Source: a virus. Taken from it: a stretch of DNA of 64,000 nucleotides. Below, one piece after another: positions 17,275-64,000 of this stretch. The stretch covers positions 1 to 64,000 of IMG/VR virus record IMGVR_UViG_3300025087_000044; one strand, given 5' to 3'. Numbering within the stretch: the stretch's first letter is position 1; each line of letters begins with the position of its first letter. The position numbers and the translations under genes are program-made. The notes under the pieces are model-generated. The model had not been told where the DNA came from, searched no databases, and was given only the letters and a program-made list of their open reading frames with translations.

Positions 17275-17286
17275 GAGATTTCACAA

Positions 17287-17356
17287 GGCGATAACAGGGA
17301 CTCGAACCCTGATAGTCATCATTTACTGACATTCTAACCATTGAATCATTATCGCC
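17287..17356 (-). tRNA. tRNA-like gene resembling tRNA-Gly, aberrant anticodon arm (no clear anticodon)
   Basis: GCGATAA/TTATCGC acceptor, ATTC/GAAT D-stem, CAGGG-TTCGAGT-CCCTG T-arm; anticodon arm only GTCA/TGAC with 8-nt loop. Confidence 0.7.
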
Positions 17357-17359
17357 ACA

Positions 17360-17435
17360 TAGCAGAGGTGGGACTTGAACCCACGACATCAACCTTTTAA
17401 GAAGGCAAATGCTCTACCAACTGAGCTACGTTGCA
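17360..17435 (-). tRNA. Degenerate tRNA-like gene (possibly Lys-CTT derived)
   Basis: TAGCTCAGTTGGTAGAGC D-arm, GTGGG-TTCAAGT-CCCAC T-arm; mismatched acceptor, non-7-nt anticodon loop. Confidence 0.6.
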
Positions 17436-17509
17436 AGTCAACTGAGGGAGTCGAACCCTCGCCGAGGGTTTTGAAACCCCCACCCGTCCGCAGATGTACC
17501 GTAGTTGAC
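17436..17509 (-). tRNA. Atypical tRNA-like gene with 8-nt anticodon loop TTTCAAAA
   Basis: Perfect GTCAACT/AGTTGAC acceptor, GAGGG-TTCGACT-CCCTC T-arm, GGGGG/CCCTC stem, 3-nt variable loop, non-canonical D region. Confidence 0.6.
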
Positions 17510-28126: not shown

Positions 28127-28252
28127 TTAAACCTTGTTCACTCGCTTACATCGCTTGCACTTTATCGACACTTGATACTTCACTTCGTCAGGATTACGCT
28201 CCACCTCACACAACTTGGCTTTGCATTGTTCGCACCGTATTTCGTAGCTCAT
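28127..28252 (-). CDS. Mu Com-like zinc-finger protein (41 aa, absent from ORF track)
   Basis: MSYEIRCEQCKAKLCEVERNPDEVKYQVSIKCKRCKRVNKV; ATGA overlap with terL stop. Confidence 0.8.
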   Translation of the reverse strand: MSYEIRCEQCKAKLCEVERNPDEVKYQVSIKCKRCKRVNKV

Positions 28253-29667
28253 ACCATTCGTGTAGCGTAAATGTTTTTATGTTTCTTTTTCTTTTGCAGC
28301 GGCCGCTCGAACATCCTCACATAAGTCGAATCGAATGACATCATCAATGCGTCCGCCACGTCAGGACTCTCTATTCCATTGCGCCGCATCTCATCTTTGC
28401 TCATAATCTGCAGTCGTCCCGAAGAATCTGTTTTGTACTTAATATCCAATAACTCGCTCCAATCACCATCTTTGTCGAGTTTGCCGCCATTGTTTATCCA
28501 CTTCTTCAGCTTCCAATAGTTCTCAGCACGCCGATTGATGAACTTCGTCTGCTCCTTAGCTTGCCCGCCCAGCTTAACAGCGTTGACTCTAAAACCCTGC
28601 TCCTTAAGCCTGTCAGTACAACCGCCACCCATTCCTGTATCGTCAAGACTGACATTCTGCCAATCCACCTTATTCTCCACCGCCAATCTTATCGTAGTGC
28701 CTACGGTGCTCATCAAATCGTTATCAGAGTTCTTAGCTAGGATTGTTGCGAAATTCTCACTGCGCTTAACCCAAACGTTGAAGTTCCCACCGCCTCTGGC
28801 TATATCATGCCCGATATTCCTTGTCCCGAACTCCGCGACATCCTTCTTATCCACCAAAGCACTATCGTATTCCCTGTCTGTTATCAAATTACTCCAGCCT
28901 TTGTCATCTATCGCTGATGCTTCAGGAAACTTATTCTCGTATAACACATCGAAGAATGGCTTCTTGCGGCACTCCTCAATGTATTCTTCATTAAGCCGGC
29001 CTTCGTCAAGTCCTATCTTGTAATCAATATTAAGTTTATAAAACTTCGGGTCTCTGTAGTCCTTCAAGAAATGATTCCTTTTAAATGGATTGCCAATCTT
29101 GAAGTAAAAGTTATCCATCTTATCCCCTAACATTCGGAATATCTTCGCCTCAATGTCATCATCAATCAGAGCCGCTTCGTCCAGTACAACATTGCTTGCC
29201 CCAAACCCCATCAACGCTTCGCCGGCAGTTTGCTTGTTTCTGGAATCCGCCGACAAGATGTAGACCTCACCCATCGAACCGTCAGTGTGCTTAAATGTCA
29301 ATCGGCTCTTGCTGCGCTCTCTTCTCAAGTGCTCAAGACTTTCACCCTTCGCTATGTCCAGTTTCTGCTTGGTGTAGTCATTGTCAAAGGCATGGTCAAT
29401 GATGTAGCTCATGATAATCTTAGCCTTCTTCTCACTAGGTGCCACAATCGCCCACTTCTCAGGAAAGGTCGCTACCCTAGTAAGAACAGCCAACGCTACG
29501 GTTAAAGATTTCCCATAGCGCGTATGCGCAGCCAGCCAATTCCTTGGGTGAACTCTTCCAAATATAAGCCTAAAAATATCTTGTTGTCCTGCGGATAATT
29601 GAATTGGCTTACGTTCTTCGTCTTTATACATTGCCGCAACCATTTTCTGGACTTTTATATCACTCAT
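28249..29667 (-). CDS. terL: Terminase large subunit
   Basis: TRYGKS Walker A, VVLDEAA Walker B, IGNP, GHDIARGG, DDTGMGGG, SPDVADAL. Confidence 0.95.
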   Translation of the reverse strand: MSDIKVQKMVAAMYKDEERKPIQLSAGQQDIFRLIFGRVHPRNWLAAHTRYGKSLTVALAVLTRVATFPEKWAIVAPSEKKAKIIMSYIIDHAFDNDYTKQKLDIAKGESLEHLRRERSKSRLTFKHTDGSMGEVYILSADSRNKQTAGEALMGFGASNVVLDEAALIDDDIEAKIFRMLGDKMDNFYFKIGNPFKRNHFLKDYRDPKFYKLNIDYKIGLDEGRLNEEYIEECRKKPFFDVLYENKFPEASAIDDKGWSNLITDREYDSALVDKKDVAEFGTRNIGHDIARGGGNFNVWVKRSENFATILAKNSDNDLMSTVGTTIRLAVENKVDWQNVSLDDTGMGGGCTDRLKEQGFRVNAVKLGGQAKEQTKFINRRAENYWKLKKWINNGGKLDKDGDWSELLDIKYKTDSSGRLQIMSKDEMRRNGIESPDVADALMMSFDSTYVRMFERPLQKKKKHKNIYATRMV

Positions 29668-44843: not shown

Positions 44844-46973
44844 ATGTTTACCTATAAAAAAGATGGATTCAATGTTCCAGTCAAAAGTTGGATACCAGAA
44901 AAAGATTATTATTCTGACGTTGCTATGGTTGAACAGTGCGAGAATTTGGCAAGGTTGCCTTTTTCTTTCGGACACGTTGTCTTGTGTCCTGACGGACATG
45001 TTGGTTTCGGTTGCCCAATCGGTTCAGTCGTTGCAACTAAAGCTGTAATAATTCCCAATGTTTGTGGGGTAGATATTGGAGCTGTAGATAGGGATACTGA
45101 GATTTTAACTAAAAGTGGATGGATTACTATAGATAAATATAACAACATTGATGATGTCTTAATTTATGATAATTACAAGCAAACTTCCTTTTTTAGCAAG
45201 CCATTGTTGTATATTGTAAAACCTTGTGAAGATTTTACGGAATACAAAAGCAAATATGGATTAGACCAGGTTTTGAGTGACGAGCATAGAATGTTGGTTT
45301 ATGAAGGGTATGGAAAAGATAGAACAAACAATACTTATTTTTGTAAGGACTTTAGGGAAAAATTATCAAAATTAAAAAAACAAGATTATTATTCAGTAAG
45401 AACGACGTTCGCAACAAATGAAAAGGGAATAAAATTAACAGATGAGCAGATAGCTATTATGGTAATGGTTTCTGCTGATGGTCATATTAGAAAACAGTCT
45501 AGTGTATATACAAATGTAGAGATGCATTTTAAAAAGAGTAGAAAAATAAATCGTTGTAAGGTTTTGTTGAATAAAGCAAAAGTTAGTTTTAAAGAATATG
45601 ACCACAGTGATAAGACAAAGTCAATAATCTTTAAGTTAGATTGGGAGTGTAAGAAAGAATTAACTGCTTTATATCTATGTAATCAGCATCAGGCAAAAGT
45701 TGTTTTTGACGAGTATTTGTATTGGGATGGAACCATTGATAAAAAAAGAAATCATAAAATGTATTCCACAACAAAGAAAGTAAACGCCGATGTTGTTCAG
45801 TATATATGTGCCGTGAATGGAGTTAGGGCTGGCATACATCTTCAAAGTTATAAAAATGAAAATTGGAATGATTCATATAGCGTGTATCAAACGAGAAACG
45901 AATATGTTGGATTCAGTCGTCCCCAAAAAATAAAGATACCAAACGGTAACAAGTATTGTTTTGTTGTTGAAACTGGATATTTTGTTGCTAGAAGGAATAA
46001 CAAGATATTTGTTACTGGAAACTGTGGAATGATTGCGGTTAAAACATCTCTTACTGAATTGGACAGAGAAACATTAAAAAAGATTCTTGGTAATATAAGA
46101 CAAACGATTCCTGTAGGATTCGAACACCACAAAACAGACCAAGACATTACCCTCATGCCGAATTATGGGTTAGGAGCAGGTGGCGAAATAACAGGAAGAG
46201 AGTACATGTCAGCCCTAAGGCAGATTGGAACACTTGGTGGAGGTAATCATTTTATCGAAATCCAAAAAGGAGATGATGGGCATATCTGGATAATGATTCA
46301 TTCGGGTTCGAGAAACTTAGGAAAGCAAGTTGCTGATTATTATAACAAAGTCGCTATTGAGTTAAACGAAAAATATCACTCCTCAGTACCTAATGAATGG
46401 CAGTTAGCGTTTTTGCCTGTTGACAGTCAAGAAGGACAGAATTATATTTCCGAGATGAATTATTGCGTTGAGTTTGCGTTGGCTAATAGACAGTTAATGA
46501 TGAGCAGGATAATTGATATTTTCTGCAAGCATACAGAATTGGCTGCTAAGGGTTGGGAACCGCCAATCAATATAGCTCACAATTATGCCAAGCAAGAAAA
46601 TCATTACGGACAAAATTTATGGGTTCACAGAAAAGGAGCAACGTTAGCGCAAGACGGAACAATAGGAATAATCCCTGGCTCACAAGGTTCAAGTTCGTTC
46701 ATCGTTAAGGGCAAGGGAAGTAAAGAATCATTTAATTCATGTTCACATGGTGCAGGAAGGCTTATGAGCAGAACCAAAGCCATGGCCACTCTTAACCTTG
46801 AAGATGAGATAAAGAAACTTGACGACCAAGGTATTTTGCATGCAATCAGAGGCAAGAAAGACCTTGATGAGGCAAGCGGTTCTTATAAGAACGTAGAAGA
46901 AGTAATGAACAATCAATCTGATTTAGTGGATATTTTAGTAAAATTAAGCCCAATGGGTGTCGTGAAAGGATAG
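44844..46973 (+). CDS. rtcB: RtcB RNA ligase precursor containing an intein
   Basis: PDGH.G.G.PIG, GVDIG/CG, GTLGGGNHFIE, HSGSR, HNY, HRKGAT, IPGSQG, SCSHGAGR, DEA. Confidence 0.95.
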   Translation: MFTYKKDGFNVPVKSWIPEKDYYSDVAMVEQCENLARLPFSFGHVVLCPDGHVGFGCPIGSVVATKAVIIPNVCGVDIGAVDRDTEILTKSGWITIDKYNNIDDVLIYDNYKQTSFFSKPLLYIVKPCEDFTEYKSKYGLDQVLSDEHRMLVYEGYGKDRTNNTYFCKDFREKLSKLKKQDYYSVRTTFATNEKGIKLTDEQIAIMVMVSADGHIRKQSSVYTNVEMHFKKSRKINRCKVLLNKAKVSFKEYDHSDKTKSIIFKLDWECKKELTALYLCNQHQAKVVFDEYLYWDGTIDKKRNHKMYSTTKKVNADVVQYICAVNGVRAGIHLQSYKNENWNDSYSVYQTRNEYVGFSRPQKIKIPNGNKYCFVVETGYFVARRNNKIFVTGNCGMIAVKTSLTELDRETLKKILGNIRQTIPVGFEHHKTDQDITLMPNYGLGAGGEITGREYMSALRQIGTLGGGNHFIEIQKGDDGHIWIMIHSGSRNLGKQVADYYNKVAIELNEKYHSSVPNEWQLAFLPVDSQEGQNYISEMNYCVEFALANRQLMMSRIIDIFCKHTELAAKGWEPPINIAHNYAKQENHYGQNLWVHRKGATLAQDGTIGIIPGSQGSSSFIVKGKGSKESFNSCSHGAGRLMSRTKAMATLNLEDEIKKLDDQGILHAIRGKKDLDEASGSYKNVEEVMNNQSDLVDILVKLSPMGVVKG
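45081..46022 (+). mobile_element. 314-aa intein starting with Ala, with LAGLIDADG-type endonuclease region
   Basis: AVDRDTEILTKSGW...SDEHRM...VSADGH...YWDG...YCFVVETGYFVARRNNKIFVTGN/C. Confidence 0.9.
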
Positions 46974-60692: not shown

Positions 60693-62130
60693 GAGTATTA
60701 TACATTCCGTTCTTCTCCAACAGTAGCAATCATAATGGTTGTAGTATCTATAAACCATGAAGATTTTTTTTAGGGCATGGGTTGATTCGGATGAAAGTGT
60801 ATTTGTTTATTTCCTTGTCCCAGACAATGTTAAGTATTCTTATGACGATGACGCTCTTAATCACCCAAGAATAAAGAAGATTCCAGTGCCAATGATTGGA
60901 AGAGACCAGTATGACGAGAAAGTTATTGTGCCAGAAAGTCTTTATGCTCTATTCAACACAGACGTTGGCAAGTATTACTATGATTTGGTGTTCTGTGATA
61001 AGGCTCAGATAGCAAATCTTGTTAAGATAATGTTAAGTAGAAAGTTTAAGGTAAATAGCTTTGACACTCTGCCCTATGTTACATTGACTCAGTTTTTAAT
61101 AAAAAAAGAGGGTAGATTTCAAAACATACTAGATGAAATTGAGTTTAGTCATTGTCTTGGGTGGATGTCTGGATACAATCTTTTTGAGAATGAAAGAAAT
61201 GCTAGTCAATGCCTTAGTGTTGCTAAGAAATACTTACTGCCAACTCATGTAATGAAGATTAAGGAAAAGTCTAAAATTCAAAACATTTATGGATTAAACA
61301 CGAAGGTTTTGGATAAGTATTATACTGGAAACACTTATAAGGCTGGAGAAGAGATTAGAATAAATTTTGCCAATAGAGCAGCAATTCATTACAAGTTAGA
61401 GGAAATTCTTGATGTTGTTGATTACATTTTTAAAAGTGGAATAAACATAAGATTCATAATAACCACTCCAACCATTGCTCTTGGAATGTATGCTCACAAA
61501 AGAATAAGTGAAATGAAGAGAAATGGAATGAAGATTGATGTTCATTGTGGCTTGAGTCAGCCTCAGTTTTATGAGATAGCAGCTACTTGTCATTTCTTTA
61601 TTTCAGCAATAGATGAGTTGCAGTCCCCTAATGCTTATATGGAACAGCTTTATCTTGGACAGGTTGGCTTGTTCCCTAAACATAATTGGGTTGATGGATT
61701 TTTCAAAGACTATCCATATAGATGGAACAATTTAAAAGATGCGTTTGTCACCTTGAAAGAGTTTTCTCAAAATCCAGTGCCAATGATTGAAAGAAATTTG
61801 ATTGAGAGAAACAAGTTAAAGGAAGAGTATGATATATCACAAAACTCAGTAAAAGTTCTTGACTGGCTAAAGAAAGATGTTTTGCCTCTTTACACTTCAA
61901 CTAGCGACTCACAAACAGACTTAGTAAGAGAGTGTGTAGAAAAGGCTGGTTTTCCAAATAACATTACCATAACCGAGTTTGCTGAAATGCTAAAGAAATA
62001 CTCAGCAACTAAAATAGACTTGTATGAGCCAACCTTTAGGCGAGTAAACAAGTTTGACTATATAAAGTCACTTATGTCGCTTGGCTATAAAGATACCTGT
62101 GAAGAGGAATTAACATTTATTAAAACTTAA
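60689..62130 (+). CDS. GT-B glycosyltransferase-like protein; natural N-terminus MRVLYIPFF is -1 out of frame with the 60757 ORF
   Basis: MRVLYI start overlapping upstream stop; INFANR, EIAATCHFFIS..ELQSPNAYMEQLYLG. Confidence 0.65.
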
Positions 62131-62139
62131 CTTTAAACT

Positions 62140-62844
62140 ATGTCCACTGAAATTAAACAGAATCAGCTTATAGACATTAACTTGTTAGAGCCAGCAGAGT
62201 TCAATCCTAACAAGATGCCTGACAAGAAATTTAATAAGTTGGTCGAGAGAATAGCAGAACAGGGATTCAAGGACCCAATTAGTGTTGTTCCTCTTGAGGA
62301 TGGTAGATATAGGATTATTGAAGGAGAACATAGATGGCGTGCTGGAAAGTATTTGGATATGTCTCAAGTGCCAGTTTTTATACACACAGACTGGGATGAT
62401 GATAAGCAAAAGTTTGAGATAGTTAAGAGTAACATTCTCAAAGGAGAGATTGATGTAGAGAAATTCACTAAACTTGTCAATGGTCTAAACGACAAATATG
62501 AAAACGATATTTTGTCAGACATGATGGGGTTCACTGATGAGGCTGAGTTTGGGAAGTTCTACGAGAAAGTTCGTTCTGGCTTGCCAGATGAATTGAAAGA
62601 CAAACTCGATGCTGTTAAAGATGAGATTAAAACAATAGACGACCTTAGCAATATCCTGAACCGCTTGTTTAGAGAGTATGGCTCAACTTTAGAGCAAGGT
62701 TTCATGATGTTTGACTATGGCGGCAAGGACAATATCTGGATTAAGTGTAATGACCATTTATGGAAAAAAGTTGTTGAAATAAAAAACAAGTGTACTGCTG
62801 AAAGCAAGGACATCAACGATACATTCATTGAGTACTTGAAATAA
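62140..62844 (+). CDS. ParB/Srx N-terminal domain protein
   Basis: FNPNKM...IAEQGFKDPISV...IIEGEHRWRA. Confidence 0.9.
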   Translation: MSTEIKQNQLIDINLLEPAEFNPNKMPDKKFNKLVERIAEQGFKDPISVVPLEDGRYRIIEGEHRWRAGKYLDMSQVPVFIHTDWDDDKQKFEIVKSNILKGEIDVEKFTKLVNGLNDKYENDILSDMMGFTDEAEFGKFYEKVRSGLPDELKDKLDAVKDEIKTIDDLSNILNRLFREYGSTLEQGFMMFDYGGKDNIWIKCNDHLWKKVVEIKNKCTAESKDINDTFIEYLK

Positions 62845-62997
62845 TATGAAAACAACAACAGAAGAACAATCTAAAGTAGTTGAAGATAAAATAACGGGAC
62901 GCTCAACTGCAACTGGTGAATTGTTTTTAGAAAGAAGTAAATTGGCTAAAATAATTGTTGAATTGTTTGACAGGATAGAAGAACTTGAGAATAAGTT

Positions 62998-63069
62998 GCG
63001 TCAATAATTCATGGGTTAGAATCTGAGATTTCCAATCTCGGTAAAAGGGTTCAAGTCCCTTTTGACGCT
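62998..63069 (+). tRNA. tRNA-Gly(TCC)
   Basis: GCGTCAA/TTGACGC; TGAGA-TTTCCAA-TCTCG; U73. Confidence 0.92.
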
Positions 63070-63071
63070 TC

Positions 63072-63252
63072 GTGGGTATCCATGAGGTTGTACGCAGGAT
63101 ACATCTAGCACTCCAATTAAAAGCGACTGATGAGAGAGTAACCCTCTCGAAACTCATGAGAGTCTCGCGGAGTAGCCCTAGGAGTGGAATAACTGGCTAC
63201 CAGCAACCTCTTTAGCAAATAGTACCTTACACAACTTACTGGCTAATACCAC
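63072..63252 (+). ncRNA. Unnamed structured RNA downstream of tRNA-Gly (homolog of 17051..17274)
   Basis: Shared ordered blocks and covarying helices. Confidence 0.7.
63123..63168 (+). ncRNA. Type I hammerhead ribozyme, predicted cleavage after C63164
   Basis: GCGA-CTGATGA-GAGAG(TAACC)CTCTC-GAA-ACTC(ATGA)GAGT-C-TCGC. Confidence 0.92.
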
Positions 63253-63267
63253 AAGGTCAAAACAAAT

Positions 63268-63660
63268 ATGCCCTTGCGTTATAATCGTATGGATAAGAAT
63301 ATAAGTGAAATGTTGAATTGCTTCATGGACAGCAATCTTAGAATAAAGGAAAGCTCAGAAATTGATGTTCCTAAAAGAACTGGAGATACGGGGTTTGACG
63401 GGGACGTGTGTTCTTATGCAGTAGGAGGCTTTCCGGTTCCTAGTGGTACAGTCCCTATGACTGGTTGGAATTGGTGGCAAGATTATTATTACCCCAATGT
63501 AATAAGAGAAGTCTATCCTGTATACGTCCAAGAAAGAACAATTGATTCCGGCAAGAAAGCCTATGAGATAATTAAAGCTCTCAATGACAAGAAGATTATC
63601 AAACTGGACAAGGTGTCAGACTTTGTTGAAGCTATGGACTTATTGATTAAAATGTTGTAG
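63268..63660 (+). CDS. Hypothetical protein
   Basis: ORF downstream of the ncRNA. Confidence 0.6.
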   Translation: MPLRYNRMDKNISEMLNCFMDSNLRIKESSEIDVPKRTGDTGFDGDVCSYAVGGFPVPSGTVPMTGWNWWQDYYYPNVIREVYPVYVQERTIDSGKKAYEIIKALNDKKIIKLDKVSDFVEAMDLLIKML

Positions 63661-64000
63661 ACTAAACAGCTAACTCCAGTAAGTTGTGTAAGTTTAGATA
63701 AAATACGTTTAAGTGGTTTAAATATAATATATGGAAGAAGTTGTCAATCCCAAAATAAGTACCGAGGCAAGGATAGGGTATACCGTTAAGGCAAATCAAT
63801 GGAGTGCTAAAGGTGGATTGATAAGTCATCTCATGAAGACTGAGCCTGGATTTAGAGAGTTCTTTCATGAAGAGATAATGAAGAAGAGTATTCCTGTTGG
63901 AGTGTTTATTGCTAGAATGAGAGAAAAGTTTCCCAAGCTTGATGAAGAGATGTATCCGTGTGAAGCTACGGTATATAACTATAAGAGGAAGTTAAAGAAA

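Follow-up and report, generated by a model that had tools for sequence, protein, structure and literature searches.

A predicted hammerhead ribozyme built into a conserved double-pseudoknot RNA between a tRNA gene and the packaging operon of a phage

The role that hammerhead ribozymes play in bacteria and phages has been a question since thousands of them were catalogued in 2011. Their cleavage leaves a 2',3'-cyclic phosphate together with a 5'-hydroxyl, ends that by established chemistry are substrates of RtcB; ribozymes of the HDV-like class cut at their own 5' end, and one lying beside a tRNA would free the 3' end of that tRNA. Phage T4 encodes two stable RNAs, C and D, that are small, structured, located among its tRNA genes and derived from the same precursor, and no ribozyme is known in either. 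Theta ribozymes, which are HDV-like, sit directly beside viral tRNAs (Kienbeck et al. 2024, PMC10879173), in a report that does not mention hammerheads. A role in transcript processing has been proposed for prophage hammerheads (PMC3088659; PMC6765202), the products of viroid and retrozyme hammerheads are joined by tRNA ligase or RtcB (PMC7229834, PMC6765202), and RtcB has been used to capture ribozyme products (PMC8782182).

The window analyzed here is a stretch of 64,000 nucleotides, positions 1 to 64,000 of the IMG/VR virus record IMGVR_UViG_3300025087_000044, which is 99,113 bp long and 81% complete. On the plus strand, positions 63123–63168 read as a type I hammerhead with all core positions and three stems intact, an assignment based on the motif, on core conservation and on stem covariation in 61 relatives. 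Stem I (GCGA, 63123–63126, with UCGC, 63165–63168; 4 bp) has an open end, and stems II (GAGAG/CUCUC around the loop UAACC, 63134–63148; 5 bp) and III (ACUC/GAGU around the loop AUGA, 63152–63163; 4 bp) are closed by loops, which is the type I topology. The core segments CUGAUGA (63127–63133; C3 U4 G5 A6 N7 G8 A9) and GAAA (63149–63152) are canonical, as are positions 63163 and 63164, the latter being C17, and self-cleavage is predicted between C63164 and U63165, 95 nt past tRNA-Gly, with the next start codon 103 nt further downstream. The initial annotation had described this perfect core with its three stems, the same cleavage site and a 54-nt spacing from the tRNA; the sequence confirms the motif and the site, and stem I does start 54 nt past the end of tRNA-Gly(UCC) at 63069.

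A descriptor scan for hammerheads of types I, II and III over the whole 99,113-bp record returned this single one. Shuffled genomes gave 0.045 matches each when stems of at least 3/3/3 bp were allowed, and none of 300 had a match with stems of at least 4/5/4 bp. At Rfam gathering thresholds only tRNAs were found, with no match to any hammerhead model (RF00163, RF00008, RF02275-7, RF03152), and 12 relatives likewise matched no Rfam hammerhead model at threshold. An E-value scan of 501 nt found no hammerhead either; weak alignments, correctly registered, appeared only in a scan of 96 nt, the best being RAGATH-1-hammerhead at 14.2 bits (threshold 56.3) and HH9 at 12.5 bits (threshold 52). No model of the HDV clan matched at E-values up to 10; this copy has the catalytic core of a hammerhead. 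Folded in isolation the hammerhead reaches −15.9 kcal/mol, 2 kcal/mol short of a competing structure that pairs AUGA (core) with UCAU (stem III). We also considered an RNA circle released by two cuts and rejected it, as no second hammerhead of any type was found, nor any other ribozyme at 63–72 kb.

Judged by pairing and covariation, the hammerhead is not free-standing; it is built into a double-pseudoknot RNA of about 140 nt (63070–63210, plus strand), referred to below as the knot RNA, whose first base is the next base after tRNA-Gly (anticodon UCC; 62998–63069, plus strand; ARAGORN, and 55.3 bits with the Rfam tRNA model). Covariance model R1, described below, matches this copy at 146.7 bits (E 1e-32) over the full model length, reaching 63224. 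The element opens with a 5' leader of the form NCGUGGG (here UCGUGGG, 63070–63076), within which CGUGGG shows no variation in alignment A2 and is kept at 90% or more in A3. Hairpin H1 pairs GUAUCC (63076–63081) with GGAUAC (63097–63102), and its loop provides the 5' strand of PK1 (GAGGUUG, 63084–63090), which pairs with the tail CAACCUC (63204–63210). There follow the CAUCU junction (63102–63106), invariant in the alignment, the 5' strand of helix Pa (CACUCC, 63109–63114), and an A-rich linker, AAUUAAAA (63115–63122; A/U-rich and 4–8 nt long in the ten A2 members), which runs from Pa to stem I of the hammerhead. Directly after stem I comes GGAG (63169–63172), an invariant single-stranded block, and then hairpin P2 (GUAGCC, 63172–63177, with GGCUAC, 63195–63200), whose loop contains CCCUA, the 3' strand of Pa (GGAGUG, 63181–63186) and the invariant GAAUAACUG. 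There are thus two pseudoknots, one formed by Pa with P2 and the other by PK1 with H1. Every scaffold helix pairs in the window copy, which has the full set of elements from the CGUGGG leader to the PK1 tail.

Relatives were found by several routes. Searching the phage collection with blastn gave no match, and a pattern that included loop II of the window copy (UAACC) gave none. Synteny yielded no further copy either, and the TerL of the record has no close relative in IMG/VR. Scanning metagenomes for a tRNA T-loop followed, after a gap of 55–85 nt, by a hammerhead core yielded 43 loci, five of which match the window element in their flanks as well as in the hammerhead. Patterns drawn from the invariant flanks recovered 54 IMG/VR contigs and 13 bacterial genome contigs, and the bacterial hosts of the cassette include Burkholderia, Asticcacaulis, Mycobacterium, Bacteroidetes, Firmicutes, Patescibacteria and others. 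R1, built from ten members, finds 71 full-length hammerhead-bearing sites (61 distinct) in phage contigs and bacterial genomes of many phyla, and it has one match in the whole virus record. A second copy close to the unusual tRNA-like genes at 17.3 kb was considered and rejected: with filters off, R1 scores no more than 6.4 bits there, and what similarity the two regions show in pairwise comparison comes from their tRNAs.

The pairings of the scaffold are well supported by covariation. Pairing in the ten sequences extends to 97.1% of pair cells, with compensatory changes at 23 of 35 pairs. Among the 61 distinct sequences, 99.0% of scaffold pair cells are paired, against 36–41% when the partners are slid by 1–3 columns, and 491 cells have changed on both sides, a level that no shuffle reached. 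All four helices contribute: H1 is 99.2% paired (compensatory changes at 4/6 pairs), PK1 99.8% (7/7 covarying), Pa 99.5% (6/6) and P2 99.7% (4/6). Since H1 and P2 were left out of the structure of the R1 model, their 99% pairing is no artefact of alignment fitting. The homologues and the covariation of the surrounding scaffold bear out the earlier proposal that the hammerhead is nested in a noncoding RNA. A proposed extension of stem I, in which ACUCC would pair with the adjacent GGAGU, fared differently: the two are complementary in this copy, but only 40% of cells are paired and they do not covary, and the partner of ACUCC (63110–63114) is instead the second GGAGU (63181–63185), where 100% are paired with compensatory changes.

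Other hammerheads came to light in these searches. A pattern defined by geometry only showed that clean type I hammerheads of similar size are common in other phage contigs. One divergent hammerhead in a tRNA array (L055:423-568) aligns to the full scaffold model at 29 bits, and two more (L048, L075) have, by eye, a pseudoknot of the Pa/P2 type around stem I with little sequence similarity; the knot architecture may therefore extend well beyond the family modelled here. Five soil metagenome contigs in which ARAGORN finds no tRNA (L056, L068, L079, L081, L085) carry a separate and tightly conserved type I hammerhead family located 55–85 nt after a T-loop-like motif. A further phage contig (L016:5820-12503, minus strand) has hammerhead-like matches at four sites of a single strand, all inside 7 kb, a cluster that resembles the multi-hammerhead prophage arrangements of Perreault et al.

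We examined the catalytic core across the 61 distinct hammerhead-bearing sequences. The expected base is kept at C3 in 55, U4 in 57, G5 in 58, A6 in 59, G8 in 56, A9 in 58, G12 in 59, A13 in 58, A14 in 57, A15.1 in 59 and U16.1 in 60. N7 varies freely (U in 35, C in 16, A in 8), and H17 is C in 35, A in 23 and U in two, with G in none. The C15.2-G16.2 pair covaries, and two members have UUGAUAA, a U3/A8 covariation of the kind described for natural hammerheads (PMC3088659). Across the relatives stems I and III covary, differing in both sequence and length while they keep their pairing, and in about one third of members an A/A at positions 10.1/11.1 adjoins the core, with a normal stem II after it. 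Judged by alignment columns, a fully canonical core is present in 52 of the 61, and four more are abnormal only through alignment artefacts; a few cores are degenerate (L118, L105, and U4C in L090). On this pattern of substitution the hammerhead is genuine and its core is under purifying selection for catalysis.

A 26-member subgroup with loop II of the form AGUAACGN has a further feature, in that the last base of the loop covaries with the first base of the leader (G-C 17, C-G five, U-A one, G-U one, mismatch two). In the register of this subgroup, leader NCGU lies opposite loop II ACGN', and 24 of the 26 pair. This indicates that leader and loop II pair in the subgroup and tie stem II to the scaffold, which would allow the scaffold to supply the tertiary contact that natural hammerheads need. 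The window copy, with leader UCGU and loop UAACC, falls outside this register, and at most a shifted pairing of GGGU (63074–63077) with ACCC (63141–63144) is possible in it.

The genomic setting of the window copy is a gap between genes. Upstream on the same strand are genes for a SWIM protein, glycosyltransferases and a ParB-like nuclease and a 53-aa ORF, followed by tRNA-Gly; downstream are a 130-aa ORF of no known family (63268–63660, plus strand), a 299-aa ORF, TerL, an HU protein and glycan genes. The TerL gene encodes a GpA-type terminase large subunit and lies beyond the window (64461–66098, plus strand). As 61500–64000 has no terminator-like site, read-through into the downstream genes is expected. 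The window copy therefore both adjoins a tRNA and precedes a terminase operon, and the second of these is the usual setting of hammerhead-bearing copies, most of which are found within terminase/portal operons or immediately ahead of them; the genes within 4 kb downstream on the same strand are mainly TerL, of many PHROG families, and portals. In 12 other loci where TerL was checked one by one it is downstream in ten and immediately upstream in two, and in one contig (L126) the knot RNA lies between TerL and the portal. By BLASTP clustering no single protein family is conserved beside the cassette, and the terminase/portal bias is seen only through profile annotation.

Several other features of this record deserve mention. 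The last codons and stop of the 53-aa ORF (62846–63007) overlap the first 10 nt of tRNA-Gly. The 130-aa ORF is bracketed by a perfect 17-nt inverted repeat (63226–63242 / 63676–63692), and at loci of its relatives equally tight flanking repeats of quite different sequence are present (15 nt in L030, 17 nt in L035 and L036, 22 nt in L041), with long imperfect flanking duplexes in L024 and L027; this suggests a conserved long-range stem around the gene. Two relatives (L028:2758-3195 and L034:2773-3273) lie directly before large phage tRNA arrays, and the protein family may be linked to tRNA clusters. On the minus strand at 17286–17436 are two abutting tRNA-like genes with abnormal anticodon arms; ARAGORN gives one of them the anticodon UUA, which would read the stop codon UAA, and makes no assignment for the other. 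The record also has two unrelated TerL genes, the GpA-type gene given above and one of Terminase_6N type (28249–29667, minus strand), and its G+C content drops from about 0.44 (1–38 kb) to about 0.37 (40–92 kb). The record may combine two phages or have arisen as a chimera during assembly.

We think it fairly probable that the hammerhead is a self-cleaving module within a conserved knotted phage RNA, by which a transcript is cut at an operon junction, its new ends are clamped and the late message is shielded. The knot would fold as the polycistronic RNA is made, in the gap after tRNA-Gly and ahead of the operon that runs from the 130-aa ORF to terminase, and the hammerhead would cut after C63164. 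This would part the upstream RNA, with the ParB operon and tRNA-Gly, from the message of the packaging operon. The upstream piece would end in a 2',3'-cyclic phosphate, and the downstream message would begin with a 5'-hydroxyl. Three helices lie across the cut (stem I, 4 bp; Pa, 6 bp; PK1, 7 bp), and because they span it a reasonable inference is that the nicked, two-piece RNA would stay together. With these 17 bp bridging the cut, both new ends would be held by stem I, Pa and PK1 and are probably buried in the knot. The probable outcome in vivo would be that the late message has a 5' end that is defined and shielded from nucleases and that the tRNA-bearing piece, its cyclic-phosphate end shielded likewise, is processed independently; burial of the 5'-hydroxyl might stabilize the message and so affect its expression. 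The processing role proposed for prophage hammerheads (PMC3088659) fits this location at an operon junction.

The same scaffold is found without the ribozyme. A search of IMG/VR for scaffolds with just 12–42 nt between CAUCU and GGAG recovered 53 loci (44 distinct), and CUGANGA is present in none of them. In 40 of the 44 this interval holds only the Pa strand and a linker of about 6 nt, and the remainder have small hairpins. Each is recognized by the full length of R1, at 41–86 bits and with the hammerhead portion as a deletion, and they keep all scaffold helices and invariant blocks, GGAG included. Because 44 distinct relatives have the scaffold without it, the hammerhead is, on this comparison, an optional insert between Pa and GGAG of a wider RNA family. 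In many stand-alone copies a long stem formed by the flanks closes the element, and in one contig (L157:236-455) two hammerhead-less knot RNAs stand in direct tandem.

These relatives also raise the main rival to the reading we prefer, which is that the knot RNA has a function of its own, especially in tRNA arrays. The RNA itself would be the product, a stable small RNA of late leaders and tRNA clusters that might, for instance, act as a decoy resembling a tRNA, block a nuclease or bind a protein. The hammerhead would serve only to mature or release it at sites out of reach of the host enzymes that process tRNAs. Occurrence of the scaffold without the hammerhead in 44 distinct relatives, with every helix and invariant block retained, means that the scaffold's own function may be primary, and the invariant CGUGGG, CAUCU, GGAG and GAAUAACUG exceed what a ribozyme clamp would need. 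The long stems that close many stand-alone copies point the same way. So does genomic location: hammerhead-less copies are mostly in tRNA arrays, with mixed functions downstream, and half of them (22/44) have a same-strand tRNA within 300 nt, compared to 9 of 56 hammerhead-bearing members (Fisher p = 0.0004), the 56 being those found without a tRNA-based search pattern. In one array (L072) the knot RNA is the entire 145-nt spacer between two tRNAs. The window copy is one of five hammerhead-bearing copies that begin 0–1 nt past a tRNA, but across the hammerhead-bearing members the link to a tRNA is weaker than the initial annotation suggests. Against the knot RNA as product, the predicted cut lies within the scaffold, not at either edge, and would split the RNA instead of releasing it, the window has no terminator after the element, and no partner protein is conserved in the neighborhood. 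We regard this explanation as unlikely, although it is the one that competes most seriously with a self-cleaving module at the operon junction.

A second alternative starts from the chemistry of the ends, as the initial annotation did in proposing that RtcB might reseal the cut. Under it, the nicked knot would be resealed by RtcB or by the reverse reaction of the hammerhead, and the balance between cut and sealed RNA would serve as a readout of RNA-repair capacity or as a gate on late expression. Cleavage ends are RtcB substrates, the 17 bp of scaffold and stem I would keep them together, and an RtcB gene is encoded in the same record (44844–46973, plus strand). That gene is a single open frame of about 710 aa that matches PF01139 at profile positions 1–116 and 139–426 around an in-frame insert, and it lies 16 kb upstream of the hammerhead in a different block. 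The roughly 290 residues between the two profile matches look like an intein-sized insert.

The cassette and RtcB do not co-occur regularly, as RtcB-coupled repair would have them do. Among whole records with the cassette RtcB is present in one of five, and in none of the three that are at least 95% complete; in the flanks examined, just 2 of about 59 further loci with a hammerhead have it, and 0 of 44 hammerhead-less loci do, a difference that is not significant (p = 0.26). One of the two loci, L118, has rtcB 5.8 kb downstream of the cassette, but its hammerhead core is degenerate. The other is the exception that keeps resealing alive as a minority reading: in L089 the start of rtcB is 15 nt after the cassette, and the protein is 51% identical to that of the window phage. 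The hammerhead-bearing knot RNA of this contig is closed by a flanking stem (L089:449-1775). If resealing does occur, L089 would be an autoregulatory loop in which an RNA ligase reseals the leader of its own message. As a rule, however, the proposed RtcB switch finds little support, and we consider it improbable; we give equally little credence to the broader form in which the knot clamps aligned products, the nick is reversible by ribozyme ligation or RtcB, and the state of the leader switches the downstream operon.

The distribution of the cassette could also be that of a mobile or selfish element, spreading at the RNA level among unrelated phages, with the hammerhead serving its own propagation. 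It is present in phages with several unrelated terminase families and in bacteria of many phyla, and relatives of the neighboring genes lack it: neither a hammerhead nor any other ribozyme is present at the 23 loci with relatives of the 130-aa ORF (0/23), and the only relative found by synteny through ParB, L004, has neither hammerhead nor tRNA (0/1). The tandem copies in L157 would fit as well. The virus record has a single copy, however, neither a transposase nor a reverse transcriptase nor a second ribozyme was found with it, and target-site repeats were not seen, which makes such an element quite improbable. Finally, that the hammerhead of the window copy is an inactive relic, as its more stable competing fold, its departure from the subgroup consensus in loop II and the degenerate cores of some relatives would allow, is very improbable given its intact core positions and stems and the purifying selection on the core across the family.

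The knot RNA family offers a test bed for what hammerheads do in phages, with a natural hammerhead set in a conserved scaffold that comes in versions with and without the ribozyme. The two versions occupy different settings, packaging-operon leaders and tRNA arrays, and the contribution of the ribozyme could therefore be tested by swapping natural variants. The scaffold alone, about 100 nt of strongly covarying RNA with a wide distribution, is absent from Rfam 15, and we found no description of it in the literature searched.

Comparison with the systems described at the outset places the locus among them. By description alone, the knot RNA is like T4 RNAs C and D in being a small structured RNA among phage tRNA genes. 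It shares with viroid and retrozyme hammerheads ends that are substrates of an RNA-repair ligase; in those systems two cuts release a unit for circularization, whereas the window record has a single hammerhead and no second ribozyme. As with theta ribozymes, a small ribozyme predicted to be self-cleaving follows a phage tRNA gene, but it is of another class and fold and would cut 95 nt past the tRNA. RAGATH-1 (RF03152), which gives the best Rfam alignment of the window hammerhead, is likewise of type I, places an A-rich linker on the 5' side of a short stem I and has extra structure upstream; its 5' hairpin does not fit, however, the model has no equivalents of PK1, Pa and P2, and the score is 14.2 bits against a threshold of 56.3. 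The closest likeness is to the type I hammerheads of phages and prophages (Perreault et al. 2011, PMC3088659; RF00163 and its clan), which have the same core, the same three-helix junction with an open stem I, the same cleavage chemistry (predicted here) and the same setting between phage genes. Unlike these, the hammerhead described here has a 4-bp stem I that runs into a conserved double-pseudoknot scaffold with invariant junctions, this copy and 12 relatives fall below all Rfam hammerhead thresholds, and the scaffold can dispense with the hammerhead. The hammerhead class and its phage setting were known already; neither Rfam 15 nor the literature searched contains the scaffold, the way in which the hammerhead is built into it, or the naturally occurring versions that have or lack the ribozyme.
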